From positions 29,820 through 93,819 of IMG/VR virus record IMGVR_UViG_3300009159_008491: a stretch of 64,000 nt of DNA. One strand, given 5' to 3'. Every line of letters starts with the position of its first letter. Position 1 is the first letter of the stretch. Position numbers and translations under genes: made by a program. Shown here piece by piece: positions 7,370 through 22,721 of the stretch. The DNA comes from a virus. The notes under the pieces were generated by a model. It was not told the DNA's origin, did not search any database, and saw only the letters and a list, made by a program, of their open reading frames with translations.

Positions 7370-8353
7370 TTATCTATAAGATTTTTTTCCTTGTAAAACA
7401 TCTAACCAATGATCACACATTTCATGTAAAAGTGTTTCAAAATAATACTCTGGTTCCCAATTTAATATTTTTCTTGCTTTTGAAGAATCTCCTTTTAAAT
7501 AAGGTAATTCTTCTGGCCTTAAATATTTTGCATCTTGTTTTATAACAATAGGATCAATATCAAGATAATTACAAACAATGTTGCACATTTCTCTTACCGT
7601 ATGTGTTTGCATTGTAGAAATTACAAAATCATCCGGTTCATTATGATTTAACATTAAATGCATTGCTTTCACATAATCTTTTGAATGTCCCCAATCACGA
7701 TATGAGTCCATGTTTCCTAAAAATAATTCTTTTTGTAATCCAAGTTTAATTGAACATAATCCTTTTGCAATTTTACTTGAAACGAAATTACTACCTCTTC
7801 TTGGCGATTCATGATTAAATAGAATTCCATTAGAAATAAATAAGTTATAAGCCCTTCTATAATGCCTAGTGATATTATAACCAAAGACCTTGGAACATCC
7901 ATATGGAGAAACAGGATTCATAATGGTTTTTTCTCTTTGAAATCCATCTTCATCTATGGTTAAACCAAACATCTCAGAAGAACTTGCTTGATAAAATTTT
8001 GCTTCAGGACAATTTTCTTTATAGGCTTCTAAAACATTTAACACGCCAAGAGCATTTATTTCTACTGTTAAATTTGGAATATCACTAGATATTCTCACAT
8101 GACTTTGTGCAGCTAAATTATAAATTTCATCAGGCTTTATTTTTGACAATAAATTATTTAAAGAATATTGATCAATTAGATCGCCATAATGTATATTTAT
8201 TTTATCTTCTATATGTTCTAATCTATAAGATTGATTTTCAGATACAGAGTGTCTTCTAACTATCCCATGAACCTCGTATCCTAAATTTAAAAGATGTTCA
8301 GAAAGATAACTTCCATCTTGACCTGATATTCCAGTTATAAAAGCTTTTTTCAT
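7370..8353 (-). CDS. gmd: GDP-mannose 4,6-dehydratase
   Basis: ITGISGQDGSYL, YNLAAQSHV, FYQASSSEMFG, SPYGCSK, NGILFNHESPRRG, RDWGH. Confidence 0.95.
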   Translation of the reverse strand: MKKAFITGISGQDGSYLSEHLLNLGYEVHGIVRRHSVSENQSYRLEHIEDKINIHYGDLIDQYSLNNLLSKIKPDEIYNLAAQSHVRISSDIPNLTVEINALGVLNVLEAYKENCPEAKFYQASSSEMFGLTIDEDGFQREKTIMNPVSPYGCSKVFGYNITRHYRRAYNLFISNGILFNHESPRRGSNFVSSKIAKGLCSIKLGLQKELFLGNMDSYRDWGHSKDYVKAMHLMLNHNEPDDFVISTMQTHTVREMCNIVCNYLDIDPIVIKQDAKYLRPEELPYLKGDSSKARKILNWEPEYYFETLLHEMCDHWLDVLQGKKSYR

Positions 8354-8961
8354 ATATTTTTTTTAAAAATTTTCATTTGTGTTAAATCGGGCCAATCGGT
8401 GAATACCCATTGTCTTGGTTTCTTCTCAATCGCTTCAGGTAATTTTTCAATACCCATTTTAGCAGTTTCAGGTGTCATATAATAATGGTAACCTACTGAT
8501 TCAATATTTTGCTCTCTCCAAGGTATGTTAGGAATTCTTCCGTCATAAGACATTTTTTTTAAACTTATTGCAGCAGTTTCATCATTTGTTAATATTATAC
8601 CCCCTCTTCCTAAGTTCAAATGCTTTTGAAATTGAAAACTAATACACATAAAAGTATTCGGTATATAACTATCTTTTTTCCATAAAACAGCGGAATCAAT
8701 TATGTTTTCTGTAACATAATAAAAATTACTCCATTCCTCATCCCTCCAATCTAAATCAATTTTAAGTTTGTGTGATAAAAATGGAATTGAAAGATAGGTT
8801 CTTTTTGGTGTACTAATTTTTTTTGCTTCTGTATACAATAAACATAATTCTATTCCATGTGTACAACTATCTACAGCAATAGCGTATTTTGAACCAAAGA
8901 ATTCAGCAATTTTACTTTCAAATTCAGAAACAACATTAAAATCAACTTTTTTTAATATCAT
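8350..8961 (-). CDS. Short DegT/DnrJ/EryC1/StrS-family PLP-dependent aminotransferase
   Basis: FESKIAEFFGSKYAIAVDSCT, IIDSA, ISFQFQKHL (Schiff-base Lys), GRGGIILT; only 203 aa. Confidence 0.8.
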   Translation of the reverse strand: MILKKVDFNVVSEFESKIAEFFGSKYAIAVDSCTHGIELCLLYTEAKKISTPKRTYLSIPFLSHKLKIDLDWRDEEWSNFYYVTENIIDSAVLWKKDSYIPNTFMCISFQFQKHLNLGRGGIILTNDETAAISLKKMSYDGRIPNIPWREQNIESVGYHYYMTPETAKMGIEKLPEAIEKKPRQWVFTDWPDLTQMKIFKKNI

Positions 8962-8965
8962 ATTT

Positions 8966-9505
8966 TCATTTTTTTACACATTCAATATTTAAACTTATTA
9001 ATACACCATTTTCTTTGTCCATATGAGGAATATACGCCTGAGAATGATCATCATAATTAGCATGTTCTGTGTTCCTCCAATCATATCTTTCTATTTGATA
9101 AAATCCACTTTGTTCTAGTAAGTCAAATAGTGAATTAAAATCATATGTGGTTTTATGGTATATGTTTGAATTTCCCATTGACATTTTTCCATAAAGTGGA
9201 CCTAAAATTTGATTTAAAGAAACAATTTTGTTTAAATATAATTCTGACATTTTTTCAAAATCAGGAACTGCAATTCTTAATGTTTTTTCCGGCTTTAAAA
9301 CTCTTTTCCACTCTTTTAAAATATCTAAAATTTCGACTCTATCAAAATATTCTATAACATGTGATGAGTAAATTAAATCTACAGAATCATCATCAAATGG
9401 CAATTTTGTAATATCATTATAATCTAAATGATCATAGGTTCCACCATCTATATGAATCCAATCTTTGCCAAAATTTCTCCAGCCACACCCTAAATGTAAT
9501 TTCAT
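8966..9505 (-). CDS. Class I SAM-dependent methyltransferase (Methyltransf_11-like)
   Basis: KLHLGCG, LPFDDDSVDLIYSSHVIEY, EWKRVLKP, LRIAVPD. Confidence 0.85.
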   Translation of the reverse strand: MKLHLGCGWRNFGKDWIHIDGGTYDHLDYNDITKLPFDDDSVDLIYSSHVIEYFDRVEILDILKEWKRVLKPEKTLRIAVPDFEKMSELYLNKIVSLNQILGPLYGKMSMGNSNIYHKTTYDFNSLFDLLEQSGFYQIERYDWRNTEHANYDDHSQAYIPHMDKENGVLISLNIECVKK

Positions 9506-9506
9506 A

Positions 9507-10229
9507 TTATTTTTTTTTAGTTAAATTATTTATAACATTTATTATAAAACAAATTGTTATAATTATAAAACTAATAAAAAAAGATAATTTTTGCAACCCT
9601 AAAATTGATAAAAATATTAATATTGTAAAAGTTCCTGTTCCAAAATATTTTATTAATTCAATTGATTTGAAAATTTTTTTGTTTTCTATTTTGTAGAAGA
9701 AATAATAAAAAGAATAATAACAAATATTTTTAGAAAAAAAGTAATATCTATAAAACAATCCATTTTTTTGATTTTCTACTGATTTACTTTTAAAAGAATT
9801 AGTTTTCTCAAAATTACTTACAGCATCAAGTGTTCCTATGTGTAGTAACATAGGAAATATGAATAGCAATATAGAGAAAAAAGCATAATAATCAGATTTT
9901 AAAAAAAATGTCAATAAGAATAGAAAGCCAACAATGTGATCTTTGTTCCAATCATATACTGCTCCAAAAAAAGAACATTCATTATACTTTCTTGCAACTT
10001 GCCCATCAACACAATCTAAAACATAATAAATAAAATAAAAAATTACTGCAATTATTAAATGATTATATAAATAAAATACAGGTGATAAAAATGAAAAAAA
10101 TAATGAAATTGTGGTTATGTTAGATGGCGATAAACCCATTTTATGTAATGGGTCTACAAGTATATTAGCTATTTTTCTAAATATATATAAATCTAAAGGG
10201 TCTTCTAGGTTTTTGTTGTAACTTGGCAT
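9507..10229 (-). CDS. CDP-alcohol phosphotransferase family membrane protein
   Basis: DCVDGQVARKYNECSFFGAVYDWNKD matches DxxDGxxAR...GxxxDxxxD; SPSNIT; several transmembrane segments. Confidence 0.85.
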   Translation of the reverse strand: MPSYNKNLEDPLDLYIFRKIANILVDPLHKMGLSPSNITTISLFFSFLSPVFYLYNHLIIAVIFYFIYYVLDCVDGQVARKYNECSFFGAVYDWNKDHIVGFLFLLTFFLKSDYYAFFSILLFIFPMLLHIGTLDAVSNFEKTNSFKSKSVENQKNGLFYRYYFFSKNICYYSFYYFFYKIENKKIFKSIELIKYFGTGTFTILIFLSILGLQKLSFFISFIIITICFIINVINNLTKKK

Positions 10230-10939
10230 TATTTTTTTTCTATTAATACATTATAACGATATGGTGCTGAAAGATTCCAATCAAAATTACAAATATCAAT
10301 TTGATTAAATATTTTAATATCACAATTGTTATCTTTAGCAAAATTTTCAAATAAAGATTTTGGTAAATATAAATGTTTTAAATCTTCTTTTATAATTTTA
10401 TCACTTGATTGATGTGTTTCCTTTCTTAATTTTTTTGCAAGTTCTTCTTTTTCTTTATCTGAAATATCTATAATTAATATTTTGCCGCTCTTAGAAGTCT
10501 GATACATTTTTTTAAGTACCTCTAAAGCATATTCTTCATTTTCAAGATAAATAAAAGTTCCAACATTAAAAACAAAATCATATTTTTCATCTTCACAAAC
10601 CCATTTCTCATTTTGAGCATCATCTACCCAAAAATTACCTTGTATATTATCTTTGCAGATTTTTATAAGTGACTCGGAATAATCAAATCCGTTTAATAAA
10701 ATATTTGGATAATTTTCATTTATAAATCTTATTGCAGCTCCTGCACCACAGCCAAGCTCCATAATAGAATCAATATTTTTTAAATAATCTTTAATAGGAA
10801 AAAAACTATTTGATAAAAAATTATCCCATTGTTTTTTTTCTAGGTGATCCCATCCATCTAACTGGTGAAGATCTTTGTTTTGAAAACCTTTTTTGTTCCA
10901 AACCTCTTTCCAATCATTTTTTTGTTTTACTACATCCAT
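10229..10939 (-). CDS. Class I SAM-dependent methyltransferase
   Basis: IMELGCGAGA, GFDYS, YDFVFNVGTFIYL. Confidence 0.85.
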   Translation of the reverse strand: MDVVKQKNDWKEVWNKKGFQNKDLHQLDGWDHLEKKQWDNFLSNSFFPIKDYLKNIDSIMELGCGAGAAIRFINENYPNILLNGFDYSESLIKICKDNIQGNFWVDDAQNEKWVCEDEKYDFVFNVGTFIYLENEEYALEVLKKMYQTSKSGKILIIDISDKEKEELAKKLRKETHQSSDKIIKEDLKHLYLPKSLFENFAKDNNCDIKIFNQIDICNFDWNLSAPYRYNVLIEKK

Positions 10940-12012
10940 TTAAATATGTTTTTCATTTTATTTACGTGACTATCAAAAAATTCTACATTTCCATTAAAAA
11001 TTTCTCTGCTTTTATAATTGAAATTAATAGATTTAAAATTATTTTCATTTAAAAAATAACTAGTTTGCTCTATTTTTAACGGCATATTGTTTTCCCATTC
11101 TTTACAAGAAATTGCACAAGAAGTTGTTGAGTTGTATAGATCGTATTGTGCCCTGCTATCTTCTAGAAAAAAAGTTCTTTCTTTATTAAATTGATCATAA
11201 ATACTTTGGCCCATCCAATCATTTTGTTTATCTATTCCAAATTCTTCACAAAATGAAGGTATAAAATCTAAAATAGATATTAAGCCATGATTACTTTTTC
11301 TATTTTTTATATTGTCTTTAGATAATACCCAAGTTGTCCAAGCGTGAGGTGGCGAATTAAATTTATCAATTTTTTTAAAATTTCCATGATCAGAAAAAAA
11401 CCAAAAAACAGAATCTTCTTCTTCAAAATCCCAAGCATCAATTATTTTAAATATAGATTCATCAAGATGGGAAAAATTTTCTAAATCTGTATTTGTAGCC
11501 TCATGATGATGGTGATAAATTATAAAATGAAATTCATTTAATTCACTTTTATTTTTTTGTATTTTTTTAATATGATTAATTTCTCTTTCGGTCATTTTAA
11601 GAGATTCTTCTGAAAAATGACAAAGTAAATCTTGAGTTTTCTTATCAGTCCAAATTCCAGTTTTTTCTCCAGAGCCATCAAGTTCTATTCCGCTTGTTCT
11701 ATCTAATTTAAATTTATTAAATATTACATTTTCAATCCAAACAGAGTTGTGTAAATAAATTTTCCACTTTTCTCTATCTAATTTTTCAAATAATTGAATA
11801 TCGCTTCTTTTTAAAACATCGGGTTCACTATTATAACCAAAACCATTATTGAAAACTTGTGATGGTAAATATCCAGTAAGTAATGAAAAGACAGAAGTAA
11901 AAGTAAAACTATTAGATATTTGATGATGAAAATCCAAACCTTTTTCCTTGCTAATATCTATTAATTTATCATAGAAAGGCATGCTATCAAACAATACGCA
12001 ATAAAATTTCAT
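10930..12012 (-). CDS. Alkaline phosphatase/sulfatase superfamily protein (Thr at the nucleophile position)
   Basis: VLFDS, TFTSVFSLLTG, FFSDHG, LISILDFIPS, GQS. Confidence 0.7.
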   Translation of the reverse strand: MKFYCVLFDSMPFYDKLIDISKEKGLDFHHQISNSFTFTSVFSLLTGYLPSQVFNNGFGYNSEPDVLKRSDIQLFEKLDREKWKIYLHNSVWIENVIFNKFKLDRTSGIELDGSGEKTGIWTDKKTQDLLCHFSEESLKMTEREINHIKKIQKNKSELNEFHFIIYHHHHEATNTDLENFSHLDESIFKIIDAWDFEEEDSVFWFFSDHGNFKKIDKFNSPPHAWTTWVLSKDNIKNRKSNHGLISILDFIPSFCEEFGIDKQNDWMGQSIYDQFNKERTFFLEDSRAQYDLYNSTTSCAISCKEWENNMPLKIEQTSYFLNENNFKSINFNYKSREIFNGNVEFFDSHVNKMKNIFKWM

Positions 12013-12076: not shown

Positions 12077-12805
12077 TTATAGTTTAACCCATTCTCTAGA
12101 TGAGTCTACGCTATAAAATTTCCACAAAATATTATCTGCATATTCATTCCAATGTTCTTTACTTGATGGAGGAGGATAGTTAAATGATGCATTATCTATG
12201 TTTATAAAGTTACTTAAAGGAATATTTTGTTCCTCTGAATTAAGAAATTCATTTTTAACAAAAATTAAATTTTGTTGATTAGATCTAAAAACCAAACTAT
12301 ATCCTTTTTCTTTACCTAAATTATAAAGAGCAGCTAAAGAAGCACCAAAATAATCTGTACTGGTGTTGCTTTTATCTGGAACAACTAATGGAATTGTTGG
12401 ATCTAATGATGAATTAAATTCTATAATTACAACTCTAGGGTTGTAATTACAACTTTTCCAACACCAATAATCATGAGAATCAATATCTATACTCAATAAA
12501 TCAAATTCATTTGGAACATTGTTTTGAGAAAATAAATCATTTATGTTTTCAGAAGTGACAGTACCCTGTATAATTCCATTTTGACATTTTGAACTATCAG
12601 ATTCTAAGAGTAAACCACTCCAATCGTGATTTAATTTTAAATTTGCTGTGTTGGATAAATGTACTCCATCCCACGCACCAAATTCAACAAAATATTTATT
12701 TATAGTACCTATTTTATTGAAAATTTCTAACAATATTCCATCTTCTCCATTTTGAGAATATACCTTTTTTTGAAAACTTTTTAAGTTACTAATAAACTTT
12801 TCCAT
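12077..12805 (-). CDS. FkbM-like methyltransferase
   Basis: YSQNGEDGI, FVEFGAWDG, LLSIDIDSHDYW, PRVVIIEFN, GASLAAL. Confidence 0.75.
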   Translation of the reverse strand: MEKFISNLKSFQKKVYSQNGEDGILLEIFNKIGTINKYFVEFGAWDGVHLSNTANLKLNHDWSGLLLESDSSKCQNGIIQGTVTSENINDLFSQNNVPNEFDLLSIDIDSHDYWCWKSCNYNPRVVIIEFNSSLDPTIPLVVPDKSNTSTDYFGASLAALYNLGKEKGYSLVFRSNQQNLIFVKNEFLNSEEQNIPLSNFINIDNASFNYPPPSSKEHWNEYADNILWKFYSVDSSREWVKL

Positions 12806-13778
12806 GCTCTATACTATTTATATCTTTTATATTAATAAATTTTTCCGAATCAAATTTTTCAAATCTTGCAAAATTTATACACGGAGTATAGATAATTATT
12901 CCTTTATTAAAATAACAAGCTAGAGTTGAAAATGTACTTTGTCCTGTTACTAAATAGGAAGAAGAAACTAAATGATGAAAAATTTCAGTATCTAAACCGC
13001 CAGAAATAATATTTATTTTACCTTCAAATTTATTATTTAAAATAGTATTGTTTTTTTCATTTGGATTCATACTAAATTTATGAAAATTACTATCTAAATT
13101 TAATATTTCTTGAAAATCTAAAAATTCTTCTTTTTCTCCTTCTGTAAAAATAAAAAAATTAGCATTTGGTATTTTTTCTTTTAGTATTTTTATTAATTCA
13201 ATATAATGATTATCGTTTTTCCATCGATCTGGATGAGCTAAAATTTTTACATCACCTCTTCTCATGTGAATTGCCACATTTATCTCTCCAGCATTATAAA
13301 TTGTATTTGATAAATTATTTTTTTTCCAATATGCTCTTTGAAATTTTTCTATAATCCATTCAGAATCATCAATCATCTTCCCCGGAAAATGTATTCCGGC
13401 TTCTGTACCAAGTTCAAACAATGTGTTATAATTATAGTCAACATATTTTTTTATGTAATTTGTCATATAATCATAATCTGGATTATGAAATCTTTCTAAT
13501 TCTGATAAATTTGAACTTAAATTTAGATGTACAGAAGGAATTGAAATTTTTCTATTAAATTCTATATCATCAATTGATTTAAATTCAGATCTTAAATTTA
13601 ATAATCTATTGAATCTTGAACTTGAATTTGTTAAATCAGAATGAATAAATTCAAAATCTAATTTTTTTGACAATAATAATCCGGTTATGTAGTTGTACAT
13701 ACAGTGACCTAGTGATCCTCTAAAATGGTTTGTACTACTATGATCATTAAGAAGATTTGATTTTAAAAAATTTTTCAT
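12789..13778 (-). CDS. GDP-sugar (fucosyl)transferase-like protein (GT11/GT23 clan)
   Basis: GSLGH near the N-terminus, VAIHMRRGD, GQSTFS. Confidence 0.7.
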   Translation of the reverse strand: MKNFLKSNLLNDHSSTNHFRGSLGHCMYNYITGLLLSKKLDFEFIHSDLTNSSSRFNRLLNLRSEFKSIDDIEFNRKISIPSVHLNLSSNLSELERFHNPDYDYMTNYIKKYVDYNYNTLFELGTEAGIHFPGKMIDDSEWIIEKFQRAYWKKNNLSNTIYNAGEINVAIHMRRGDVKILAHPDRWKNDNHYIELIKILKEKIPNANFFIFTEGEKEEFLDFQEILNLDSNFHKFSMNPNEKNNTILNNKFEGKINIISGGLDTEIFHHLVSSSYLVTGQSTFSTLACYFNKGIIIYTPCINFARFEKFDSEKFINIKDINSIEHGKVY

Positions 13779-13784: not shown

Positions 13785-14339
13785 TTATTTTTTTTTATGA
13801 TACCATACTCCACCATCATGTAAATCATAATCAGAAAACACTTCATTAACAGCTTTTACAACCCCCATTCCGTTTTGATCATATCTAAAATCATGACCAG
13901 AAATTATACCACCTTTTCTTATTTTTGGCAACCAATTTTGAATGTCTTTTAAAACTGATTCATAGGAATGATCAGCATCTATAAAAACAAAATCTACAGA
14001 TTCATCTTCAAATTGACTGGCAGCTTCCCAAGAAATAGATTTAATATCGATAATCATATCTCTTACGTTTTTATTTTTGAGATTTGTATTATAGATTTCA
14101 TTTATATGTTTTACTTCATCTAATACATTTTTATTTTTATTCCAATCTTCAAAAATATCAACTGCGTAAATTTTTACATTAGGTTTATTTCTCAAATTAT
14201 TTGCTAGATAAGAAATTGAATGTCCTTTCCAAACTCCTAATTCTACAAATGTATTAAAATCTTCATGAGATGATATCATATTGTAGAAAGATTGATAATT
14301 AAACCAATTGTTTGTTTCTAATAAATTGTTTATATTCAT
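13785..14339 (-). CDS. Methyltransf_24-like SAM-dependent methyltransferase
   Basis: FVELGVWKGHS, VDFVFIDADHSYE, GGIISGHDF. Confidence 0.85.
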   Translation of the reverse strand: MNINNLLETNNWFNYQSFYNMISSHEDFNTFVELGVWKGHSISYLANNLRNKPNVKIYAVDIFEDWNKNKNVLDEVKHINEIYNTNLKNKNVRDMIIDIKSISWEAASQFEDESVDFVFIDADHSYESVLKDIQNWLPKIRKGGIISGHDFRYDQNGMGVVKAVNEVFSDYDLHDGGVWYHKKK

Positions 14340-14341: not shown

Positions 14342-14929
14342 TTAATTAATTTTAAAATTAAATATTTTTAAGTCTTTTTTATATATTTGATGTACTTTTT
14401 CTAATAAATCTTCATTATAATATTCTTTATAATCTTTATGATTGCTTTGGTTTATTTTTTTCAATTCTATGTTAAATAAACTTTTTAATTCTTCATTTAT
14501 GTTTTCATAATTTATTAAATGATCAACAATAATTTCTTTTTTTGAGTTTATGACATATGGATATTGAGAATCCCATCCCTGATGTTTGAACAAACTTCTG
14601 TCTTCATATAATAAATTTACACAACCAGCAAAATCAATATTCTTTAGTAAGTTATAATCTGGGTGTGGACCATAAAGTGTTTTGTTTGTGAAAGAATGCC
14701 AATAACTTTCATCTAATTTTGAATATTCATAATTAGATACAGTTCTATCCAAAGGATTTCTGATAACTGCAATTTTTTTGTAGTTTTCCCATTCGTTTGG
14801 ATATTTATTTTGATAATAATCAAATTTATGATGTCCTTCATCATCCATTTCCAACGCTTCAACTATTGATGTACCTGCGTTTTTGGGAATGTGAATAAAT
14901 ATAACTTTATATTTGTGTGATATTGGCAT
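14342..14929 (-). CDS. Sulfotransferase family 2 (carbohydrate sulfotransferase-like)
   Basis: FIHIPKNAGTSI (5'-PSB), VIRNPLDRTVSNY (3'-PB). Confidence 0.85.
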   Translation of the reverse strand: MPISHKYKVIFIHIPKNAGTSIVEALEMDDEGHHKFDYYQNKYPNEWENYKKIAVIRNPLDRTVSNYEYSKLDESYWHSFTNKTLYGPHPDYNLLKNIDFAGCVNLLYEDRSLFKHQGWDSQYPYVINSKKEIIVDHLINYENINEELKSLFNIELKKINQSNHKDYKEYYNEDLLEKVHQIYKKDLKIFNFKIN

Positions 14930-14930: not shown

Positions 14931-15341
14931 TTAAATCATTTTTTTATCTAGTTCAATACCTAAATACGGTCCTGTTTTATATTCATATACAATTGTATTA
15001 GGCTCTAATATTTCATAATTATGACCACCTTCAAGGGTAAAAGAAGCATCTCCACTATATAAAATTTTTTCTTCTATAATTGTATCATCAATATCATAAA
15101 AAATACATTTTACAGATCCTTCTATAACAAGCCAACTTTCCTGTGGAATATATTTTTCATTATGCACTTCTCTGTGAAAATGTTTGTGTGGTTTAAATGT
15201 TTTTCCTTTTTGCAAATTCATAGTTGAACATTGTAAAAATTCTGTATCGCTAATTAAATTATTTCTTTCAGAAACTATATCTTCTTTTCTGTTTATGAAA
15301 TGTAATAATTTGCTGTTTATTTTAGAATATATTTTTTCCAT
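14931..15341 (-). CDS. Cupin-fold protein (WbuC-like, sugar isomerase/epimerase-like)
   Basis: PHKH, QESWLVIEG, GGHNYEILE, EYKTGPY. Confidence 0.7.
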   Translation of the reverse strand: MEKIYSKINSKLLHFINRKEDIVSERNNLISDTEFLQCSTMNLQKGKTFKPHKHFHREVHNEKYIPQESWLVIEGSVKCIFYDIDDTIIEEKILYSGDASFTLEGGHNYEILEPNTIVYEYKTGPYLGIELDKKMI

Positions 15342-15342: not shown

Positions 15343-16050
15343 TTATAAATAATTTTTTATTGAATCATAACTAGCTTGTGAATTATGTATGTCAGAATAG
15401 CCACCTTCTTGATATGCTAGGAATGGCATCGCTATAAATGATTTAATTGATTCTTGAATTGTTACATAACAGGAATCAACTGGTTTAGTAAACATATTTG
15501 TCTCTAATAGTTTTATTAAAAATTTATAAGCCGATGAATTTACTGCATAAGAATGTGTGGTATGTGTACTTATTAACTCTGAATAATAATTAAATTTTTT
15601 TCCTTCTTTTACCAAAGAACCACTTAAATAAAACATATCCCATTCTGTAGGAAAATTTTTAGATAAATTTTCTAATTTTTGTTCAAAATCATCAGAAAAA
15701 GCCACATCATCTTCTAATACAAGAATGGAACTATAATTATTTTTTTGTGCTAATTTTAATGTTTCTAAATGAGAAATTAAACATCCAACTTGTCCTTTGA
15801 AATATCTATCGTGATAATTCTCAATTCCAAAAAAATTTCCCGGTTCATGTTTATAAAATTCATTTTTAATAAATGAAACTTTTTTATTTTCATAAGTAAA
15901 ATTCTCATCTATTAAAGAATAACCATCACAAGCTTTTATTCTTTCAAAAGAAAAATTATATTTTTCAGAAATTTTTAGAAATTTATCGTATCTATCTTTT
16001 CTTTTGTCTAAGTTTATTAGATAAATTTTTTCAAAAAGATTATTTAACAT
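15343..16050 (-). CDS. GT25-family glycosyltransferase
   Basis: IYLINLDKRKDR, GCLISH, ILVLEDD, WDMFYL, TTHSYAVN. Confidence 0.85.
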   Translation of the reverse strand: MLNNLFEKIYLINLDKRKDRYDKFLKISEKYNFSFERIKACDGYSLIDENFTYENKKVSFIKNEFYKHEPGNFFGIENYHDRYFKGQVGCLISHLETLKLAQKNNYSSILVLEDDVAFSDDFEQKLENLSKNFPTEWDMFYLSGSLVKEGKKFNYYSELISTHTTHSYAVNSSAYKFLIKLLETNMFTKPVDSCYVTIQESIKSFIAMPFLAYQEGGYSDIHNSQASYDSIKNYL

Positions 16051-16093: not shown

Positions 16094-16804
16094 TTATTTA
16101 GAATATTTTATTAACTCATTTACTTCCTTAAAATATTTTTCATAAGGTCTTAGAAGATGAGAATCTATATAGTGTCCTTTCTTTAATAGTTCTATATCAT
16201 AAGTCCATTTACTCCTATCAATTCTTTTTGAAAAATCTCTATCTTTTTTTACTATTAATTTATCTTTGTGATTTTCGAGTTTATCAAACATGAAGTTTTC
16301 ATCTGAATTCCATGCTAAACCATATTTTTCATTTAATAGATTACAATAACTTTCAAAATTTAAATCTTGAAGATCTAAGAGTTTTATATAAGTTTGAGAT
16401 TTTGATAATACATAACACATAGGATAAAATTTATTTTTATCATATGGCTGTCCGGAATAAAGTATCATATTATCACTAGTTAATTCATCATTATATTGAT
16501 TAAAATATTCTCCATTTAATGGTAACATATCAATGTCAGACATTAACAAATTACCATCAATAAATTTTGAAGTGAATAATCTAACTATTTGTGATTGAAA
16601 TCCAGTTGGAAAATTTTCTAATGCTTTTATGTTGTGTACAATACCCCATTTATTTTCATATATTGAGTTTTCATCTGTAATGTTTACATAATAAGTTTTA
16701 AATCCAAGATCAAGCCATTTTTTTGCAACTATTGGATAAAAATCTTTATAAAGTGAATTATCATCAGATGATATTACTACATAATCTATCTTTGTATTAT
16801 TCAT
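16094..16804 (-). CDS. Putative GT-A glycosyltransferase
   Basis: LMSDIDMLPL (DXD); position within the glycan locus. Confidence 0.5.
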   Translation of the reverse strand: MNNTKIDYVVISSDDNSLYKDFYPIVAKKWLDLGFKTYYVNITDENSIYENKWGIVHNIKALENFPTGFQSQIVRLFTSKFIDGNLLMSDIDMLPLNGEYFNQYNDELTSDNMILYSGQPYDKNKFYPMCYVLSKSQTYIKLLDLQDLNFESYCNLLNEKYGLAWNSDENFMFDKLENHKDKLIVKKDRDFSKRIDRSKWTYDIELLKKGHYIDSHLLRPYEKYFKEVNELIKYSK

Positions 16805-16817
16805 ATTATTAAAATGA

Positions 16818-17684
16818 TCAAATCATTTTTTGATCTTTAAGTATTTTTTCAAATTTTTGTTCTATAGTATACCATTTTGAATCCACTTCAACAGCATCTA
16901 ACCATTTGTTATGCCAGTGCCAACAAAATGATCCTTCATAAAGATCAAAATCATATTTTTTCATAGGATTCCATAAACCCATTAATGGATCTTGCCATTC
17001 ACTATTAAAAAAACCACTTGGGAAAATTGTCCAATCTTTATTATAGTTTCTAACTTTTTGATATAAATCTGTTGACCAATTTGTAGTATTTGGTTTTATA
17101 GCACCGTTATTTATTTCACTCATTAAATCATTGGAAAGTTTACTGTTTGCAAACAATCTCATTACAGCTCCATTTATCATTTTCTTTTCAAGTCCCCATT
17201 TATACATAAATTCTTGATCTAAAATTGGAGAAAATGATCTTAAAAAAGCTACATCTACATCAGTATATAAACCACCATATTTGTGTAGAATTAAAATTCT
17301 AAATAAATCTCCTTTTGCCCAATTCTTTTCATCTTGTGCTTCGATTATATCTTTTCTACCCTCTAAAACTGTACCTTTTATTTCTTCTGCAGGATTATAA
17401 ATTCTTAAATTTATAAAAGGTAAATAAGGCTTTAAAAATTCATTATTTTTTAAATCTACATTACACCATAAGTTAAATCTTGTATTTTCTAAATCTTGTG
17501 TACACAAATAAGATTTTATTCCTAATAATTGTTTTCTTTCAAAAGGTAATCCAACATTCCAAAAAACATGGAAATCAACTATTTCTTTTAATTTATTATT
17601 ATCTTCTATTGTTTTACAAAAATTTAGACATTCATCTAAGTCGTAATACAATATTTTGTTTTCATCTTCAGTTATTTTAACCAT
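16818..17684 (-). CDS. GT32-like (DXD) glycosyltransferase
   Basis: GDLFRILILHKYGGLYTDVD, NGAVM, HWHN. Confidence 0.8.
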   Translation of the reverse strand: MVKITEDENKILYYDLDECLNFCKTIEDNNKLKEIVDFHVFWNVGLPFERKQLLGIKSYLCTQDLENTRFNLWCNVDLKNNEFLKPYLPFINLRIYNPAEEIKGTVLEGRKDIIEAQDEKNWAKGDLFRILILHKYGGLYTDVDVAFLRSFSPILDQEFMYKWGLEKKMINGAVMRLFANSKLSNDLMSEINNGAIKPNTTNWSTDLYQKVRNYNKDWTIFPSGFFNSEWQDPLMGLWNPMKKYDFDLYEGSFCWHWHNKWLDAVEVDSKWYTIEQKFEKILKDQKMI

Positions 17685-18363
17685 TGTTCAAATATTTTTT
17701 TATTAATTTTTGAATATATCCTTTTTTTTCTATTTTTTTTAATTTTAAAAATAGGTTTATTTCAGGATTGTTTTCAAATATAGTTGAAATTTCTGTATTA
17801 ATCAATAAATTATAATTTAAATTTTTATTTAAATTGTTTGCCATTAAAGTAGCTAGGTTTAACACACTAATTTTTTCTACTGAAGAAAAGTTTAAGGTTC
17901 CAGAAATATTATTTTCTAAAGCATAAAAAACAAAATCCCTTACATCGTCAATATCAATTAAGGATCTTTCAGAATCTTTTATTATTGAAATAATTTCATC
18001 TTTAGAAATTTTATCTTTAAAAAAATTAAAAATATTATTTGAATTACCGCCAGTCCCAACTAGTTGTGGTAATCTTAATATTAAAAAATCATGAGATTTC
18101 TTTTTAATTATGTTTTCAATATTTGTTTTATGTTCATAATAGGGACTTTTTCTATTTATGAAAATACTACTAAAATAGACTAATTTTAAATTTTTATTCT
18201 CAGATAATACTTGATTAATTAAATCTACTTCCTTAGAAAAATTATTTAAATCACTTTCACTTGAATTGGAAACTCCCGATGCAAAAATTATACAATTAAA
18301 TTTTTTGTCTATTTTATGTTCCAAAAAAGATTTAGCCAATAATCCATTTCCTATTATCTTCAT
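17677..18363 (-). CDS. Short NAD-dependent epimerase/dehydratase-like protein
   Basis: IIGNGLLA, FASGVSNS, VYFSS, SPYYEHK (YxxxK), LRLPQLVG, RSLIDIDD. Confidence 0.75.
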   Translation of the reverse strand: MKIIGNGLLAKSFLEHKIDKKFNCIIFASGVSNSSESDLNNFSKEVDLINQVLSENKNLKLVYFSSIFINRKSPYYEHKTNIENIIKKKSHDFLILRLPQLVGTGGNSNNIFNFFKDKISKDEIISIIKDSERSLIDIDDVRDFVFYALENNISGTLNFSSVEKISVLNLATLMANNLNKNLNYNLLINTEISTIFENNPEINLFLKLKKIEKKGYIQKLIKKYLNNG

Positions 18364-18995
18364 TTATAAAATTCTTTTTTTAGCACAAATAAACTATCCC
18401 AATAATTTCTTCCTAATCCCATTGGAAAACCTTCGTGATCAGTTATTTCATGTTGTTTTATTTCGCAATAATTTAACATTTTTTCAAAAATTCTCTCATA
18501 ATACAAATGATTATCCGGATAGTTTGGATTCATAAATCTAAAATCATGAAATTCGACAGAATATTGTTTTGAAATAGTCCAATCAATATTTTCTAAAATT
18601 TTATATTCACCACCTTCTATGTCAAATTTTATAAGTTCAAATTGTTTTATATTATATTTATTCATAACATCTTTTATGGTTAACATAGGAACTTCAATTT
18701 TACCAATTAATTGACACCAATCTTTTTCTGGATTTAATAATGAGCACCCTTGATTGTCACTATAAATAAAAAATTCAGTCATTTCATTGTTTGAGTCATG
18801 TGAAATAGCTGCTCTTTCATATAATATTCCTTCTGGAGCTTTTTTGATTTTAGGATTAGGGTCAACACAAATAATGTTATCACATAATTCTTTCATTTTA
18901 AGTGTAAATCCAAAATTTACACAACCCAAATCTAATACATATCCATTTCTATCAATAGTAGTTTCTTCTATTGTGTGTTCAGCAAGTGTAATCAT
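18360..18995 (-). CDS. FkbM-family methyltransferase
   Basis: VLDLGC, VDPNP, LIKFDIEGGEY, SVEFH. Confidence 0.8.
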   Translation of the reverse strand: MITLAEHTIEETTIDRNGYVLDLGCVNFGFTLKMKELCDNIICVDPNPKIKKAPEGILYERAAISHDSNNEMTEFFIYSDNQGCSLLNPEKDWCQLIGKIEVPMLTIKDVMNKYNIKQFELIKFDIEGGEYKILENIDWTISKQYSVEFHDFRFMNPNYPDNHLYYERIFEKMLNYCEIKQHEITDHEGFPMGLGRNYWDSLFVLKKEFYK

Positions 18996-19675
18996 TTTAA
19001 TGTTTTTAGATATTGTTTTAAATTTTCTATATGTTCAATAACTGTTTCATCATTCTCGTTAAATACCTGACCTACAAATTCAAAATCATTACGATCTGAT
19101 GGGAATGGATAGTTGTTAGGGAAATCAAAAAAATCATCATGACAAATCATACTATCCATGTATGCTTTATGTATTTTAATTAAAAATCTTTGATCATCTC
19201 CATAATTAAAAAGATTCTTATCTTTTAAATATGTATTGATCATTTCAGACATATTAAATTTATGATCATTTTTCATTCCCCAAGTACCGCCTAAAATCAA
19301 TACTCCATGTTGTGGATGATCTCTCATAATGTGAAGATTTTTATCACTCTCAATCCATTGATCTACGGCTTCTTTTTCTCTTGTGTTTAATCTAGAGTCT
19401 GTATCTCTAACAATAAATCTTTCTACTTCTTTATCGTCATAAACCATAAAACGCCAAAACATTCCAAATCCATTAAGGTTGGTATTTGACATATCAACTA
19501 ATTCAGCATTAAATTTTTTTAATTCATTGATATAATAACTTGGAACTGTATAGTTATAATAAACTCTACAAATCCAATCTGGATATATTTCTGGTTGTAA
19601 CAATATATTTTTTATTGCTCCAACGCAATATTTTGGGTTGTCTCCGTATAAGCTAAAAGCGATTATTTTTTTCAT
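18992..19675 (-). CDS. Putative GT-A glycosyltransferase-like protein
   Basis: FSLYG, MFWRF, VRDTDSR, HIMRDHP, ILGGTWG, DDQRFL. Confidence 0.55.
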   Translation of the reverse strand: MKKIIAFSLYGDNPKYCVGAIKNILLQPEIYPDWICRVYYNYTVPSYYINELKKFNAELVDMSNTNLNGFGMFWRFMVYDDKEVERFIVRDTDSRLNTREKEAVDQWIESDKNLHIMRDHPQHGVLILGGTWGMKNDHKFNMSEMINTYLKDKNLFNYGDDQRFLIKIHKAYMDSMICHDDFFDFPNNYPFPSDRNDFEFVGQVFNENDETVIEHIENLKQYLKTLK

Positions 19676-20538
19676 TAGTATAATATTTCTTTTAATAATT
19701 CTGTTAGTTGTTGTGCTCTAACAAAATATGTATGATTATCTAAAACATGATTATACCCTTCATTAGATATGTTTTCTAGTTTATCTGTGTTTTTAAGATA
19801 GTAACTTATTTTATCTAACAAATCTTTTTCTGAATTATAAACCACTAAGTGTTTGTTTAAATCAAATAATTTTTCTAAACTGGGAGTATGATTTGTAAAA
19901 AGCGTTGTTTTGCATCCAAGAGTTTCGAATGTTCTAAAGTTAATATCATCAGCTAAGTTTCTATTAAAATGAATCTTGTAAGAATTTATGGCTTTTACCA
20001 TATCGTTCCCAATTACAAAAACATCTTCTCTTAACCTATATTTACTTTTTATTAGATCAATCCAATTTTTTCTATTAAGATAGTTTCCACAAAATCCAAT
20101 GTCATATTTTTTTTCTATTTCTGACATTGGAAAAATTAAATCATCAGGATATGCATTCGGAAACCAAATTGTTTGTTGCTTTTTAAAATATGTTTGATGA
20201 TGTTCTATAGCACATAAAACCAATTGTATTTTATGTTTATTACAAGTATCTACATGTTGCTGTGGAACACAGTGAGAATCAATCGACCAAAAAATTTTGA
20301 ATTTTTTACTTTGAGATAAATCTGGAATCCAGCCGTTTATTTCATAGTTTTCCAACAATATGATAACATCACATTTTTCCTCCAGTTCTTTAAATGAAAT
20401 ATTGAAGTTATCGTAGTTTAAACCCCATACAACAGAATCATGACCCAATTTCTTTAAAGCTCTACTTAAATTGAGTGCCTCCCTAAATTCTTGATTTGCT
20501 AAGTGCCTTCCTTTTTCCTGTATTAATAAAAAATTCAT
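19675..20538 (-). CDS. CgeB/Glyco_trans_1_2-like GT-B glycosyltransferase
   Basis: YDIGFCG, INFRTFETLGC, ISNEGYNHVLDNHTY. Confidence 0.8.
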   Translation of the reverse strand: MNFLLIQEKGRHLANQEFREALNLSRALKKLGHDSVVWGLNYDNFNISFKELEEKCDVIILLENYEINGWIPDLSQSKKFKIFWSIDSHCVPQQHVDTCNKHKIQLVLCAIEHHQTYFKKQQTIWFPNAYPDDLIFPMSEIEKKYDIGFCGNYLNRKNWIDLIKSKYRLREDVFVIGNDMVKAINSYKIHFNRNLADDINFRTFETLGCKTTLFTNHTPSLEKLFDLNKHLVVYNSEKDLLDKISYYLKNTDKLENISNEGYNHVLDNHTYFVRAQQLTELLKEILY

Positions 20539-21206
20539 TATAATGCTAGATCAAAATTATTTTTTTTTCTTTTTTCATAATTCACTTTATCAACATTATT
20601 AAATGAATCATTTTTTACTTGTAAATTATCCCACTTTTCTCCTAACCATACCGGATGTTCATGTTTAATTATTACATGTGGTATGTATTTTACTTTATTA
20701 AGTATTCTAGAAACATCTGTAAATTCAGTATCACACCAAAGACTTACATATGTGGGGTTATATATATAACCAAATCGATCATAATATTTTTTGCCAAGTA
20801 TGGATAATGTATTTAAGTTTGAACCTTGATATCCATCGTTAAACCATAAAACTCCATCAGTATCTGGAAAGAATTTTTTAAAACTTTGTTTAATTATTGT
20901 ATCATATCCTTTTTCTTGAGGTATCATGTCATCAGAAGCAAGTAAAATCATATCATAATCATTATCATTCATATCAGCATTAATTGCCTCTATTTTGTTT
21001 TTATTATTTCCAAAGTAGAATTTTAGATTTTCATATTCTTTAAATTTGTTTATAATAATTTCATTATTCATTGTAGAATCGTCAGCGTCACAACTGATTA
21101 TGAATCTAGTATTTGACAAATCATCCAAAAGATTATAATATTTATCTAAAACTAAAAAAAACTTATCAGGTCTTGATCTTGTAGGGAATTTAATTAGTAA
21201 TTTCAT
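20538..21206 (-). CDS. GT2-like glycosyltransferase
   Basis: KFPTRSRP, LASDDMIP, WCDTEF, IKHEHP. Confidence 0.75.
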   Translation of the reverse strand: MKLLIKFPTRSRPDKFFLVLDKYYNLLDDLSNTRFIISCDADDSTMNNEIIINKFKEYENLKFYFGNNKNKIEAINADMNDNDYDMILLASDDMIPQEKGYDTIIKQSFKKFFPDTDGVLWFNDGYQGSNLNTLSILGKKYYDRFGYIYNPTYVSLWCDTEFTDVSRILNKVKYIPHVIIKHEHPVWLGEKWDNLQVKNDSFNNVDKVNYEKRKKNNFDLAL

Positions 21207-21894
21207 TTGTAATTTGTGATTTTATTAAAAATTTCATTCTGTCAATATTTAAAATTTTAAAATTAAAGTTAATAATTTCATTTCTATTTTCAAAAATTAG
21301 TTCTATTGTTTTGCTTTGTTCAAAACAAGCCATTAAGTTTTTGGGGTAATTATCAAATATTTGTAAATTATTCTCAAGCTCAATAGTATCAGAAAAATTT
21401 ATATTTTTTATAAACTTTAAAAGTTCTTTTCCTCTATATACTGTTCCGTCTAAATTAAACGGATAACCAAAGTCCATATAGTGCTTTGACCAGTCCCAAA
21501 TTAAAATTCCATCATCTTCTCTTTCAGATATGAAAACATTATCGCAACCCATATTAGAACAATATGTTATATTTTTTCCAAGACCTAATCCGAAGCAAAA
21601 TATTTCTTGATATAAAAGTGTATTTTTTATTTTTTCTATATCAACCCTGTCATAGAAAAATTTATTTTCATCAATTATTGTAAAATTATTTTTGACATCA
21701 TTTTCAATAATTTCAACTAATTGCCTTTTTAAATCATTAACAACCAAAACATTATATTTATTTTGACTGTCTTTTAAAAGATTATTTTGATCTAAAATTG
21801 CAATTGAATATTCTCCAATAACTTGATTTTCAATACTTTTAATGAGTAAATCAAGATTTTCTAAGTTTCTGTTTAAAATAATTATAAATTTCAT
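21190..21894 (-). CDS. Degenerate GT-A-like protein
   Basis: IIDEN at the DXD position, WDWSK, DFGYPFNLDGTVY; operon context. Confidence 0.4.
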   Translation of the reverse strand: MKFIIILNRNLENLDLLIKSIENQVIGEYSIAILDQNNLLKDSQNKYNVLVVNDLKRQLVEIIENDVKNNFTIIDENKFFYDRVDIEKIKNTLLYQEIFCFGLGLGKNITYCSNMGCDNVFISEREDDGILIWDWSKHYMDFGYPFNLDGTVYRGKELLKFIKNINFSDTIELENNLQIFDNYPKNLMACFEQSKTIELIFENRNEIINFNFKILNIDRMKFLIKSQITNEITN

Positions 21895-22721
21895 AATAAT
21901 AGTGGTTTTTTATTTTGAATTAAATCTTGTGTATTATAATATAAATCTGAATTTGTTTTTTCAGAATTAATTGGATTGTCTACATTATAGATATAAATGA
22001 CATCTTTTATATGTAAAACATTATTAAAACCAGCTAATTCTGCTAAAGGATAAAAAATAGCCATGTTTGAACAACATGAAAACCAACTTCCATTTTCATC
22101 TGTGAAACTATTAAATAGGGGATCAGTTTCCATGAATTTTGAGTACAAAGAATTTTTAAAAGTAATAGGATGTGAAAGTTTTGAAGTAATTCTCCTTAGA
22201 ACAGAAAATTCTTTTTCTGAATAAGGTCCAGAATAGCACTTTTTTCCATCTGATAATTTTGCTGAACCATAAGTTAATAAACAGTTAGTCTGATTATAAT
22301 AATCATTTATTTTACTTAGTACGTTTTTATTTACTAACCAATCATCTCCATATAATATAAATATAATATCATCTGGATCCTGACTTGCATTTATTATTGC
22401 ATTATGTATATTGGGCAAAGCAGTTAATCTTTTGTTTGATCTCCAAGCATTTACTTTGTTGCACTTTGTTATTTCTAATATTGGATGAATTTCAGTAATA
22501 ATCAATTCTCCTTTTTCATCTCTTACTGGTTCATTGTTTTCATCAGTTTGATATGTACAGGCAGGTATTTTATTATAACTATCATCAGTTGATGAATCGT
22601 CTATAAATAAAACATCATAATTATCATAATCTTGAGTTAGGACTGAATTTATACACATATCTAAAAAATCGCCCGGATTGTGGAAAGGAATAATAACCTT
22701 TATTTTATTGTTTTTTGACAT
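21891..22721 (-). CDS. GT2-family glycosyltransferase
   Basis: VIIPFHN, CINSVLTQDYDNY, IDDSSTD, LYGDDWL. Confidence 0.85.
   Translation of the reverse strand: MSKNNKIKVIIPFHNPGDFLDMCINSVLTQDYDNYDVLFIDDSSTDDSYNKIPACTYQTDENNEPVRDEKGELIITEIHPILEITKCNKVNAWRSNKRLTALPNIHNAIINASQDPDDIIFILYGDDWLVNKNVLSKINDYYNQTNCLLTYGSAKLSDGKKCYSGPYSEKEFSVLRRITSKLSHPITFKNSLYSKFMETDPLFNSFTDENGSWFSCCSNMAIFYPLAELAGFNNVLHIKDVIYIYNVDNPINSEKTNSDLYYNTQDLIQNKKPLLL

Follow-up and report, generated by a model that had tools for sequence, protein, structure and literature searches.

What a phage makes with a block of 21 glycan-synthesis genes, and on which acceptor, is the question raised by a 64,000-nucleotide stretch of viral DNA (the window; positions 29,820 to 93,819 of IMG/VR record IMGVR_UViG_3300009159_008491). 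The contig measures 94 kb (G000) and its closest relative 217 kb (G001, estimated completeness 83%); all phage records used are incomplete (32-88%). The original prediction took the DNA to be that of a phage, and the T4-like portal, intein-bearing TerL and baseplate wedge gene agree: the source is a large uncultured T4-like phage, whose host probably belongs to the Bacteroidota/Flavobacteriia (freshwater Flavobacteria-type).

In the list of open reading frames (ORFs), the 21 co-directional genes lie on the minus strand and span exactly positions 7370-22721 of the window, as tightly packed as predicted, with 11 junctions overlapping by 1-17 nt and the biggest gaps measuring 64 and 43 bp (Table 1). 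A search for terminator-like hairpins inside the island found none, and the genes appear to form one operon-like array. In the divergent region upstream, the island strand has TACTTTTG, of the host-like TAnnTTTG type, 6 nt ahead of the first-gene ATG; G001 does not conserve this motif. Of the canonical late type, CTATTTATA occurs there on the opposite strand only, and the canonical late-type motif that precedes structural genes, CTATTTAT[AT], is absent upstream of the island on the island strand. Because the island is thus preceded by a host-like instead of a late-type motif, co-expression with the virion genes is not supported.

Table 1. Features of the glycan island and its surroundings (positions in the window)
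Position	Strand	Feature	Basis
3230..4423	-	GT1/GT4-family glycosyltransferase outside island, conserved in relatives	PF00534 E 6.8e-7; 83% identical in G001
5180..5205	-	Terminator-like hairpin, first downstream of array	9-bp stem + T run
7370..8353	-	GDP-mannose 4,6-dehydratase (Gmd)	PF16363 E 2e-109, full length
8350..8961	-	Compact DegT-like PLP enzyme, 203 aa	PF01041 E 4e-16, Lys motif kept
8966..9505	-	Methyltransferase (Methyltransf_11)	PF08241 E 1.1e-9
9507..10229	-	CDP-alcohol phosphotransferase, membrane protein	PF01066 (CDP-OH_P_transf) E 7.5e-14
10229..10939	-	Class I SAM methyltransferase (Methyltransf_25)	PF13649 E 1.1e-11
10930..12012	-	Alkaline-phosphatase-superfamily protein, soluble, phosphotransferase-like	AlphaFold2 pLDDT 73 + Foldseek
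12077..12805	-	FkbM-like methyltransferase (fifth)	Iterated HMM E 4e-27
12789..13778	-	GT11-like (alpha-1,2-fucosyltransferase type) glycosyltransferase	HxRRGD motif
13785..14339	-	Class I SAM methyltransferase (Methyltransf_24)	PF13578 E 5.9e-23
14342..14929	-	Carbohydrate-type sulfotransferase (Sulfotransfer_2)	PF03567 E 1.8e-10
14931..15341	-	WbuC-like cupin	TIGR04366 E 1e-9
15343..16050	-	GT25 glycosyltransferase	PF01755 E 1.4e-17
16094..16804	-	236-aa protein, GT-A suspected (candidate)	DxD-like SDIDM motif
16818..17684	-	GT32 (DXD) glycosyltransferase	PF04488 E 4.5e-10
17677..18363	-	Short SDR, 228 aa, RmlD-like 4-reductase candidate	Partial PF04321 + PF01370 matches
18360..18995	-	FkbM-type methyltransferase	PF05050 E 2.5e-13
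18992..19675	-	GT-A glycosyltransferase candidate, virus-dominated family	ESM Atlas language-model lead only
19675..20538	-	CgeB-like GT-B glycosyltransferase	PF13524 E 4.3e-27
20538..21206	-	Phage-type glycosyltransferase	phrog_14945 E 2.5e-21; 84% identical in G001
21190..21894	-	GT-A fold glycosyltransferase, anchor partner, unnamed family	AlphaFold2 + Foldseek
21891..22721	-	GT2-family glycosyltransferase, first array gene, conserved anchor	PF00535 E 1.3e-10
22722..22786		Divergent intergenic region, 65 bp, upstream of array	Sequence inspected
27437..28699	+	GT1/GT4-family glycosyltransferase outside island	PF00534 E 1.7e-8

Profile searches confirm the GDP-sugar enzyme classes that had been proposed (Gmd, DegT-like, short epimerase and cupin), the WbuC-like cupin scoring 38.4 bits, under the TIGR04366 cut-off of 42. 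The short SDR is WbcJ/RmlD-like by NCBIfam and keeps YxxxK. The DegT-like enzyme, on whose compact sequence an amino sugar in the glycan would perhaps depend, has a 209-aa paralogue that aligns end to end, and homologues are present in cultured phages. All five expected methyltransferases were recovered, four by Pfam and the fifth by iterated HMM and hhalign (99.7% to the FkbM set). The sulfotransferase, also foreseen, has both PAPS-binding motifs readable (PKxxGTS and RNPxxR) and a 45% identical homologue in the island of the related record G004. The CDP-alcohol phosphotransferase was likewise correctly named, as it carries the full catalytic signature (DxxDGxxAR...GxxxDxxxD); with at least 4 hydrophobic segments it is the only island protein with transmembrane segments, which fits the expectation that almost all the enzymes are soluble. 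What had been described as a phospho-/sulfo-transferase fold is an alkaline-phosphatase-superfamily fold (Foldseek matches to YejM/PbgA, sulfatases and LtaS, prob 1.0), in which DHG is invariant, the sulfatase C/SxPxR motif is absent and only 8 homologues are known.

Eight of the approximately nine island glycosyltransferases (GTs) predicted are supported, and the 236-aa candidate is left without a family (no match in Pfam, PHROGs, NCBIfam or PDB). The second gene product of the array has no Pfam match; its AlphaFold2 model (pLDDT 87) matches SpsA, TarP and GnT-I (Foldseek prob 1.0), its family comprises 2999 representative clusters at E<=1e-3, and the model suggests a newly recognised GT-A glycosyltransferase. 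Another GT-A enzyme is probable at 18992..19675, where the nearest ESM Atlas clusters (0.99) are virus-dominated and without a Pfam family, one of them bearing the automatic name hexosyltransferase; GT8/Nucleotid_trans clusters come no closer than 0.92 in the same resource, which is not a fold search. Bacterial proteins related to it in structure are fusions with TPR repeats, and G001 has a 63% identical protein. For the GT11-like enzyme, PF01531 is carried by 7 of 18 homologues. Three additional GTs had been placed outside the island, of which those starting at 3230 and 27437 stand (the latter conserved across the lineage, 50-58% identical in most relatives), and the one at 2326 is not confirmed, having given no match. 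The families of the conserved GTs are dominated by viruses and are not host-like LPS families.

It had further been claimed that the locus lacks an initiating transferase, Wzx, Wzy and a ligase, and is therefore not a displaced bacterial export locus. Both statements hold: searches of five related phage records (G000, G001, G002, G004 and G005) found none of the families of the initiating phosphoglycosyl transferase, Wzx and Wzy/ligase (PF02397, PF00953, PF01943, PF04932), the control genomes having responded, no protein with more than 4 hydrophobic segments is encoded in G000 or G001, and polytopic membrane proteins are missing among the 152 island ORFs of 12 relatives. As the lineage is without lipid-carrier initiation, flipping, polymerisation and ligation, assembly is most likely cytoplasmic and on a non-lipid acceptor.

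The main new feature, beyond the first reading, is the hypervariability of the island around a conserved GT2/GT-A anchor. The proposed comparison among related phages (relatives' islands taken to 10 kb and found with one of two anchor genes) revealed cassette swapping between retained flanks. Specifically, flanks and island position, between an exonuclease-like gene and the PhoH module, are the same in at least 16 independent IMG/VR viral contigs from different samples; flank proteins of G001 and the contig are 77-94% identical, with only 6 of 22 island genes in common, and G004 and the IMG/VR contigs show the same island synteny with the GT2 and GT-A pair first. Across 14 islands compared, 67 of 91 protein families are confined to one island, GT2 homologues occupy the promoter-proximal end in 13, and the GT-A partner, which itself served as search query, is present in all 14. 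Cassettes are swapped at this locus throughout the lineage, and the conserved GT pair is its anchor. Glycan chemistry is also the predicted business of the relatives' islands (GT2 26, FkbM 12, GT10 10, epimerases 8, Gmd 6, GT6 4, GT11 3). Since relatives keep the position of the block and swap most of its genes, the glycans that the lineage makes within infected cells probably differ from strain to strain.

In the pathway that we infer, Gmd would convert host GDP-mannose to GDP-4-keto-6-deoxymannose, from which the short SDR, the cupin and the DegT-like enzyme may produce donors of 6-deoxyhexose (of the fucose or rhamnose type), perhaps along with some of 4-amino-6-deoxyhexose. The two promoter-proximal GTs would lay down the acceptor-proximal sugars, with about eight soluble GTs assembling the oligosaccharide and the swapped downstream genes setting its outer structure; methyl groups would come from the five methyltransferases, sulfate from the PAPS-dependent sulfotransferase, and phospho-alcohol groups from the CDP-alcohol phosphotransferase with its alkaline-phosphatase-fold partner. 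That soluble phage enzymes build such a decorated glycan on a cytoplasmic non-lipid acceptor, most plausibly virion proteins such as Ser/Thr-rich fibres, has in our judgement about an even chance of being right, and would make the surface glycan specific to the phage strain. Virions of chloroviruses, Megavirinae and mycobacteriophages are glycosylated by virus-encoded soluble enzymes. Outside the window, this phage also encodes a GT2-TibC fusion that matches TibC (PDB 4rb4, E 3e-54) over 340 residues and adjoins a Ser-rich collagen-like fibre (36.6% Ser+Thr), which shows a capacity for cytoplasmic protein glycosylation. Points that weigh against virion proteins are that (i) one island enzyme is membrane-embedded, (ii) host export machinery could be borrowed and (iii) the TibC operon is a locus separate from the island, absent from G004 and G005, both of which have an island.

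A somewhat unlikely reading is that the phage enzymes modify host undecaprenyl-linked O-antigen, capsule or teichoic-like precursors at the cytoplasmic face, with the host initiating enzyme, flippase and ligase exporting the altered glycan, which would block superinfection or change how grazers or the host population recognise the cell. One of the proteins that the GT-A anchor partner resembles is TarP, which is encoded by a prophage and adds sugar to wall teichoic acid before the host exports it; O-antigen loci typically contain families such as GT25, the WbuC cupin and the RmlD-like SDR, and the membrane-embedded CDP-alcohol transferase and the host-type motif ahead of the first gene also fit. 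Host O-chain modification is, moreover, the standard and favoured reading of similar LPS-like islands in pelagimyophages and cyanomyophages (PMC7029224; PMC12801897). However, the phage supplies no membrane step in the five records, the conserved core enzymes come from virus-dominated families, the host flippase and ligase would need to accept the heavily decorated product of about eight GTs, and the phage has an O-glycosyltransferase dedicated to proteins. A T4-like lytic lifestyle would also leave little time to profit from a changed host surface.

Improbable, in turn, is another cytoplasmic acceptor (a non-virion protein, a small molecule, or a phospholipid from the CDP-alcohol transferase), for which a decoy or metabolic sink is one possible role. 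The adjacency of the CDP-alcohol phosphotransferase and alkaline-phosphatase-fold genes, and promoter evidence that does not link the island to late genes, speak for it, but the CDP-alcohol enzyme is conserved in none of the 13 other islands and therefore cannot be what determines the acceptor across the lineage, and no precedent was found in the literature searched.

Glycosylation of hydroxylated pyrimidines in phage DNA, as a means of restriction evasion, has precedents: phage GTs related to LPS enzymes attach mono- to trisaccharides to 5hmC (bioRxiv 10.1101/2023.12.21.572611), and others attach arabinose chains to 5-hydroxycytosine (PMC13326640). Here it is very improbable, and this alternative in the original prediction has been weakened: thymidylate-synthase homologues are missing from G000, G001, G002 and G005, and C5 cytosine methylases from G000, G001, G002 and G004, so that the closest relatives yielded no sign of a pathway to hydroxylated pyrimidines (a Tet_JBP search had no match in the five records, with controls likewise silent). 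Flavobacterium phage immuto, a cultured relative, has a related glycan cluster, yet its DNA contains canonical dA, dC and dT, and has fdPreQ1 in place of dG (PMC10516641). Fucosyltransferase-type GTs, the sulfotransferase and five methyltransferases point instead to an oligosaccharide acceptor.

A chimeric assembly, or the joining of phage DNA to a piece of a bacterial O-antigen locus, as the metagenomic origin of the contig and the match of its gene families to bacterial glycan loci might suggest, is effectively refuted by the synteny conserved in those 16 or more independent viral contigs, and GC content is uniformly low across the junctions (0.23-0.26 inside the island, 0.25-0.28 beside it).

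Among known systems, the fusion protein resembles the bacterial autotransporter heptosyltransferases (TibC/Aah) in retaining four iron-finger Cys and the catalytic Asp, but it is phage-encoded, fused to a GT2 domain, placed beside a collagen-like fibre outside the 21-gene island, missing in distant relatives that keep the island, and found in a phage where no heptose pathway was seen.

The capsid glycans of chlorovirus PBCV-1 and the fibril glycans of Megavirinae have been shown chemically on virion proteins. These giant viruses share with the phage island Gmd-type enzymes, soluble GTs of multiple families, O-methyltransferases and a core that is conserved beside parts that vary by clade, and they too are not known to encode lipid-carrier or export steps; they are viruses of eukaryotes, and no sequence-level kinship between the two systems was found. 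Mycobacteriophage GTs similarly act inside the cell, decorating capsid and tail proteins (Freeman et al. 2023, as related in PMC12619734 and PMC12801897); these are few-gene clusters of siphoviruses of actinobacteria, not known to include a sugar-nucleotide pathway, sulfation or cassette swapping on the scale of this island.

The published islands of cyano- and pelagimyophages (P-SSM2, S-SCSM1, S-SCSM2R with 22 LPS-like genes and 13 GTs, and pelagimyophage HRC; PMC7029224, PMC12801897) also occur in large aquatic T4-like myophages as fixed, non-syntenic islands, rich in GTs and sugar-nucleotide enzymes (Gmd, epimerases, GT2, GT11, GT25), with tail-fibre and structural genes nearby. That work assumes host O-chain modification without a test for missing export genes. 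In contrast, the present phage probably infects Bacteroidota, encodes a BAHT-type protein O-glycosyltransferase elsewhere in its genome, and combines a conserved two-GT anchor followed by a swapped cassette with sulfotransferase, CDP-alcohol transferase and alkaline-phosphatase-fold decoration genes.

The island at positions 7370-22721 is filled by exactly 21 minus-strand ORFs; 11 of their junctions overlap and the largest gaps measure 64 and 43 bp, so that the array of 21 packed, co-directional genes described in the original prediction is confirmed in both number and shared direction. No terminator-like hairpin was found inside it, and the nearest ones on the island strand lie outside (see the table). 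Profiles support Gmd, a 203-aa DegT-like protein, four methyltransferases, a CDP-alcohol phosphotransferase, a sulfotransferase, a short SDR and a WbuC-like cupin (the last slightly under the curated cut-off), together with GT25, GT32, CgeB-like, GT2 and phage-type glycosyltransferases; sugar-nucleotide enzymes and glycosyltransferases thus stand together in one operon. Given these profile, fold and homologue assignments, the gene classes originally proposed are essentially right, except that the outlying 'GT' at 2326 was not confirmed. Tail-fibre genes, a feature of the hypervariable glycan islands in aquatic T4-like myophages, are absent here, all 21 members being enzymes or unassigned, and the fibres are at least 19 kb away (41896-46101, others upstream of the window).

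Some assignments are less direct. The product of 10930-12012 has an invariant DHG and lacks the formylglycine motif, and therefore resembles a phosphotransferase rather than a sulfatase. For 18992-19675, GT8-type Atlas clusters are weaker leads only, and the bacterial proteins related to it in structure carry fused TPR repeats. Searches of PDB with phmmer returned no match for the ORFs starting at 10930, 12789 and 12077, nor for 16094-16804, the sole island ORF without an assigned class, while profiles A1 and A3 against PDB gave no match or E 0.25; a search of viral contigs with the GT11-like protein was likewise empty. The family of the GT-A partner, which with the GT2 forms the anchor pair at the promoter-proximal end, numbers 2999 representative clusters at E<=1e-3, and no Pfam model covers it.

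Positions of the main features (window coordinates; L001 is the region upstream of the window, in genome coordinates)
Feature	Position	Evidence or remark
GT2, first anchor	21891-22721	
GT-A glycosyltransferase fold, second anchor	21190-21894	predicted structure pLDDT 87; Foldseek: SpsA, TarP, GnT-I
Virus-dominated family, glycosyltransferase lead	18992-19675	nearest Atlas clusters without Pfam family; one auto-named hexosyltransferase
GT11-like	12789-13778	PF01531 in homologues and HxRRGD motif
FkbM-like methyltransferase	12077-12805	hhalign 99.7%
Alkaline-phosphatase-superfamily fold	10930-12012	closest: YejM/PbgA, sulfatases, LtaS
Nearest terminator-like hairpin, island strand, upstream	23945-23968	
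Nearest terminator-like hairpin, island strand, downstream	5180-5205	
GT2-TibC fusion	L001:5052-7418	phmmer vs PDB 4rb4: E 3e-54, TibC residues 44-387
T4 gp20-type portal	36858-38708	
Large terminase with intein	38768-41509	LAGLIDADG domain
CTATTTAT[AT], candidate late promoter	22779, 25041, 46133, 47626, 52059, others	

Two compact DegT-like paralogues are encoded by the phage, one of 203 aa in the island (8350-8961) and one of 209 aa upstream of the window (L001:8899-9528), which align end to end with 29% identity (E 2e-26) and both retain the PLP-lysine motif. Normal DegT enzymes have about 370 aa. Homologues are encoded by cyanophage S-SCSM2R, by the immuto phages of Flavobacterium and by two huge phages known from uncultured material, and the two proteins look like members of a putative compact family rather than a truncation.

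The source contig (93.8 kb, GC 27.7%; the window covers its bases 29820-93819) represents part of the genome of a jumbo T4-like phage, because it carries T4-like core genes (gp20-type portal, TerL, and a baseplate wedge gene immediately upstream of the window), because its portal is closest, among cultured phages, to those of Microcystis phage Mel-JY01 and the Flavobacterium phages vB_FspM_immuto (39-43% identity), and because its best close uncultured IMG/VR relative, G001, measures 216.7 kb at an estimated completeness of 83%. Collagen-like fibres, a pre-neck-appendage-like protein, a type IA topoisomerase and two sigma-70-family proteins are also encoded in the window. The latter are adjacent full-length genes (33550-34416 and 34508-35365) with regions 1.2, 2, 3 and 4, in a T4-like phage. 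The large terminase reaches 913 aa owing to an intein with a LAGLIDADG homing-endonuclease domain at about residues 71-411, and the portal ORF, 616 aa here, has 1047 aa in the related records G001, G002 and G003 (L005:3175-6318) through an in-frame insertion of about 430 aa (at window position ~37732), a candidate intein by appearance. The host is likely a member of the Bacteroidota, judging from the literature (PMC12619734) and from the closest cultured phages, those of Flavobacterium; a search of genome contigs with a sigma-70 query gave chance-level matches only. The cultured relative vB_FspM_immuto is grown on Flavobacterium sp. LMO8.

The comparison among related phages suggested in the original prediction did reveal cassette swapping. 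In G001 the genes flanking the island on both sides are 77-94% identical at the protein level to those of the source contig, and its island holds 22 genes, only six of which are common to both: Gmd (52%), four promoter-proximal genes and one FkbM-like gene. The rest include three further SDRs, a UDP-glucose/GDP-mannose dehydrogenase, an NAD-synthase-like amidotransferase, two FkbM methyltransferases, a GT2 and a GT-D-like protein. The more distant G004 has the same neighbours, and its island again opens with GT2 and the GT-A partner, followed by about 13 other genes, including a GT25 and a sulfotransferase 45% identical to that of the source. More generally, a profile of the GT-A partner retrieved 26 viral loci, at least 16 of which are ordered as GT4, two small genes, PhoH, two small genes, GT2 and GT-A, and 10-14 co-directional genes, most of these downstream genes having no BLASTP match to the source island. 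When 193 proteins from 14 islands were clustered, 67 of the 91 resulting families were confined to a single island, and 10 of the 21 source genes were unique to theirs; these loci had been retrieved via one of the two anchors (GT-A) and each extends only 10 kb downstream. A fixed position with non-syntenic content, as in the hypervariable host-recognition islands of aquatic T4-like myophages, thus recurs in G001, G004, the loci of shared order and the clustered islands. The content is again glycan chemistry, as the pooled 150 island ORFs of relatives gave Pfam matches to GT2 (26), FkbM (12), GT10 (10), epimerases (8), Gmd (6), GT6 (4) and GT11 (3). Jointly, the relatives' islands (L052-L067) hold GT6 (best E 1e-50), GT10 and GT11, the trio of families behind the ABO/Lewis-type fucosylated glycans of animals. 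A chimeric join with bacterial DNA, or a one-off arrangement, is effectively ruled out by the conserved flanks around differing contents, and the island is indeed a phage locus. The contigs of two close relatives end about 2.3 kb from the island and not at its edge, and therefore no argument is drawn from assembly breaks.

Bacterial Wzx/Wzy- or ABC-dependent loci comprise initiation, flippase or transporter, and polymerase or ligase steps, and none of these was detected. As anticipated from the sequence, initiating phosphoglycosyl transferases (PF02397, PF00953), Wzx (PF01943) and Wzy/O-antigen ligase (PF04932, Wzy_C) had no match in five lineage records (G000, the source contig, with G001, G002, G004 and G005), among them those of 83% and 88% completeness; the controls gave hits, those for the initiating transferases in 10-12 of 14 genomes. 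The flippase was judged by the PF01943 profile and by counts of hydrophobic segments, and ABC-type transporters by these counts only: no ORF in the source contig or G001 has more than four such segments, and none of 152 island ORFs of relatives has two or more. Within the source island, a hydropathy scan found transmembrane segments in a single protein, the CDP-alcohol transferase with its intact catalytic signature, in keeping with the earlier view that almost all the enzymes are soluble. Since export families and polytopic proteins are absent, the phage lineage supplies cytoplasmic chemistry alone. Soluble virus-encoded glycosyltransferases with donor synthesis, and no lipid-carrier or export steps, are a trait that the lineage shares with the autonomous virion glycosylation systems of giant viruses and mycobacteriophages.

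The chances that the island glycan goes onto the virion are about even. A wider proposal, held more tentatively, is that the virions of a whole lineage of jumbo T4-like phages infecting freshwater Bacteroidota are covered with strain-specific 'serotype' glycans, methylated, sulfated, fucose-type oligosaccharides built in the cytoplasm directly on virion proteins. Chain synthesis would then begin with the conserved GT2 and GT-A and be completed by 10-20 enzymes of a freely exchanged cassette, and the result would be the viral counterpart of bacterial O-antigen diversity under selection at the particle surface.

Protein glycosylation does appear, from its gene content, to be within the source phage's reach. 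Upstream of the window, a second glycan operon combines a GT4-FkbM multidomain enzyme and the second compact DegT-like protein with an acetyltransferase and a GT2-TibC fusion. This fusion resembles the autotransporter heptosyltransferase TibC and keeps CxGC...WCPRH...FECT (the four iron-finger Cys) and LGD (the catalytic Asp), and so combines the full-length similarity, cysteines and aspartate of the BAHT (TibC/Aah) enzymes; its counterparts in G001 and G002 share 77% identity with it. It adjoins a Ser-rich collagen-like fibre (36.6% Ser+Thr), its candidate acceptor, and four fibre-tip paralogues, and no proteins in the contig are richer in Ser/Thr than the fibre proteins. A heptose pathway, which would supply the ADP-heptose donor of BAHT enzymes, was not seen. 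The operon is separate from the island, because it is missing from G004 and G005 despite their having an island. The island GT2 was considered as a paralogue of the TibC-fused GT2 domain and rejected, only a generic N-terminal nucleotide-binding motif being alignable.

Remodelling of the host envelope by the island enzymes, the usual interpretation of similar pelagi- and cyanomyophage glycan islands (PMC7029224; PMC12801897), would require just that host machinery accept the product, and is here considered less likely than virion decoration. Other acceptors are improbable, and sugar hypermodification of DNA, an alternative in the original prediction, is very improbable. The known entry points to sugar-modified pyrimidines are a ThyA homologue, or a C5 methylase with a TET-like dioxygenase; among lineage records PF00303 (ThyA) occurs only in G004 and PF00145 (C5 methylase) only in G005, leaving the closest relatives with neither, PF12851 (TET-like) had no match in a search whose control was uninformative, and in the closest relatives an enzyme making a hydroxylated pyrimidine was accordingly not found. 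Immuto, moreover, carries a related 13-gene glycan cluster, yet its DNA bases are non-sugar (canonical dA, dC and dT, with dG replaced by fdPreQ1; PMC10516641), which likewise disfavours DNA as the target.

Beside the island lie two genes (22787-23164 and 23223-23861) whose products were considered as acceptor or scaffold proteins but had no match in the phage collection. The second product (212 aa) is very acidic (31% Asp+Glu); its sequence includes runs of Glu, a TETETE stretch and a pair of EGR[G/A]IVNQ repeats. It has no match in cultured phages, and it and its 125-aa coiled-coil neighbour are conserved beside the island in most relatives. As for expression, the strand-specific motif CTATTTAT[AT] occurs 8-51 nt upstream of structural genes six times in the source contig against 0.4 expected, and 11 times in G001 against 1.0, which makes it a candidate late promoter of the lineage. 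The canonical motif is absent before the island, where a T-variant is no commoner than in shuffles and a TAnnTTTG match lacks conservation in G001; promoter analysis found no link between the island and the late genes.

If the particle is where the glycan is placed, variable sugar coats would be worn by many large environmental phages; the anchor GT-A family by itself numbers about 3000 sequence clusters. Such coats would influence adsorption, stability, recognition by grazers and immune systems, and the definition of phage 'strains'. If the host envelope is rewritten instead, lytic phages would have in these islands a large reservoir of serotype-converting chemistry that is still unexplored. 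In both cases, the layout of fixed anchors and swapped cassette offers a concrete, testable handle, with immuto available as a cultured relative.

For giant viruses and mycobacteriophages it is established that virions are glycosylated by virus-encoded enzymes. Glycan gene islands have already been published for large aquatic T4-like phages (PMC7029224; PMC12801897). New in the present case are the fixed anchor pair with a swapped cassette across a lineage probably infecting Bacteroidota, an explicit check that export genes are missing, the presence of sulfate and phospho-alcohol decoration genes in the island, and its co-occurrence with a BAHT-type protein glycosyltransferase.
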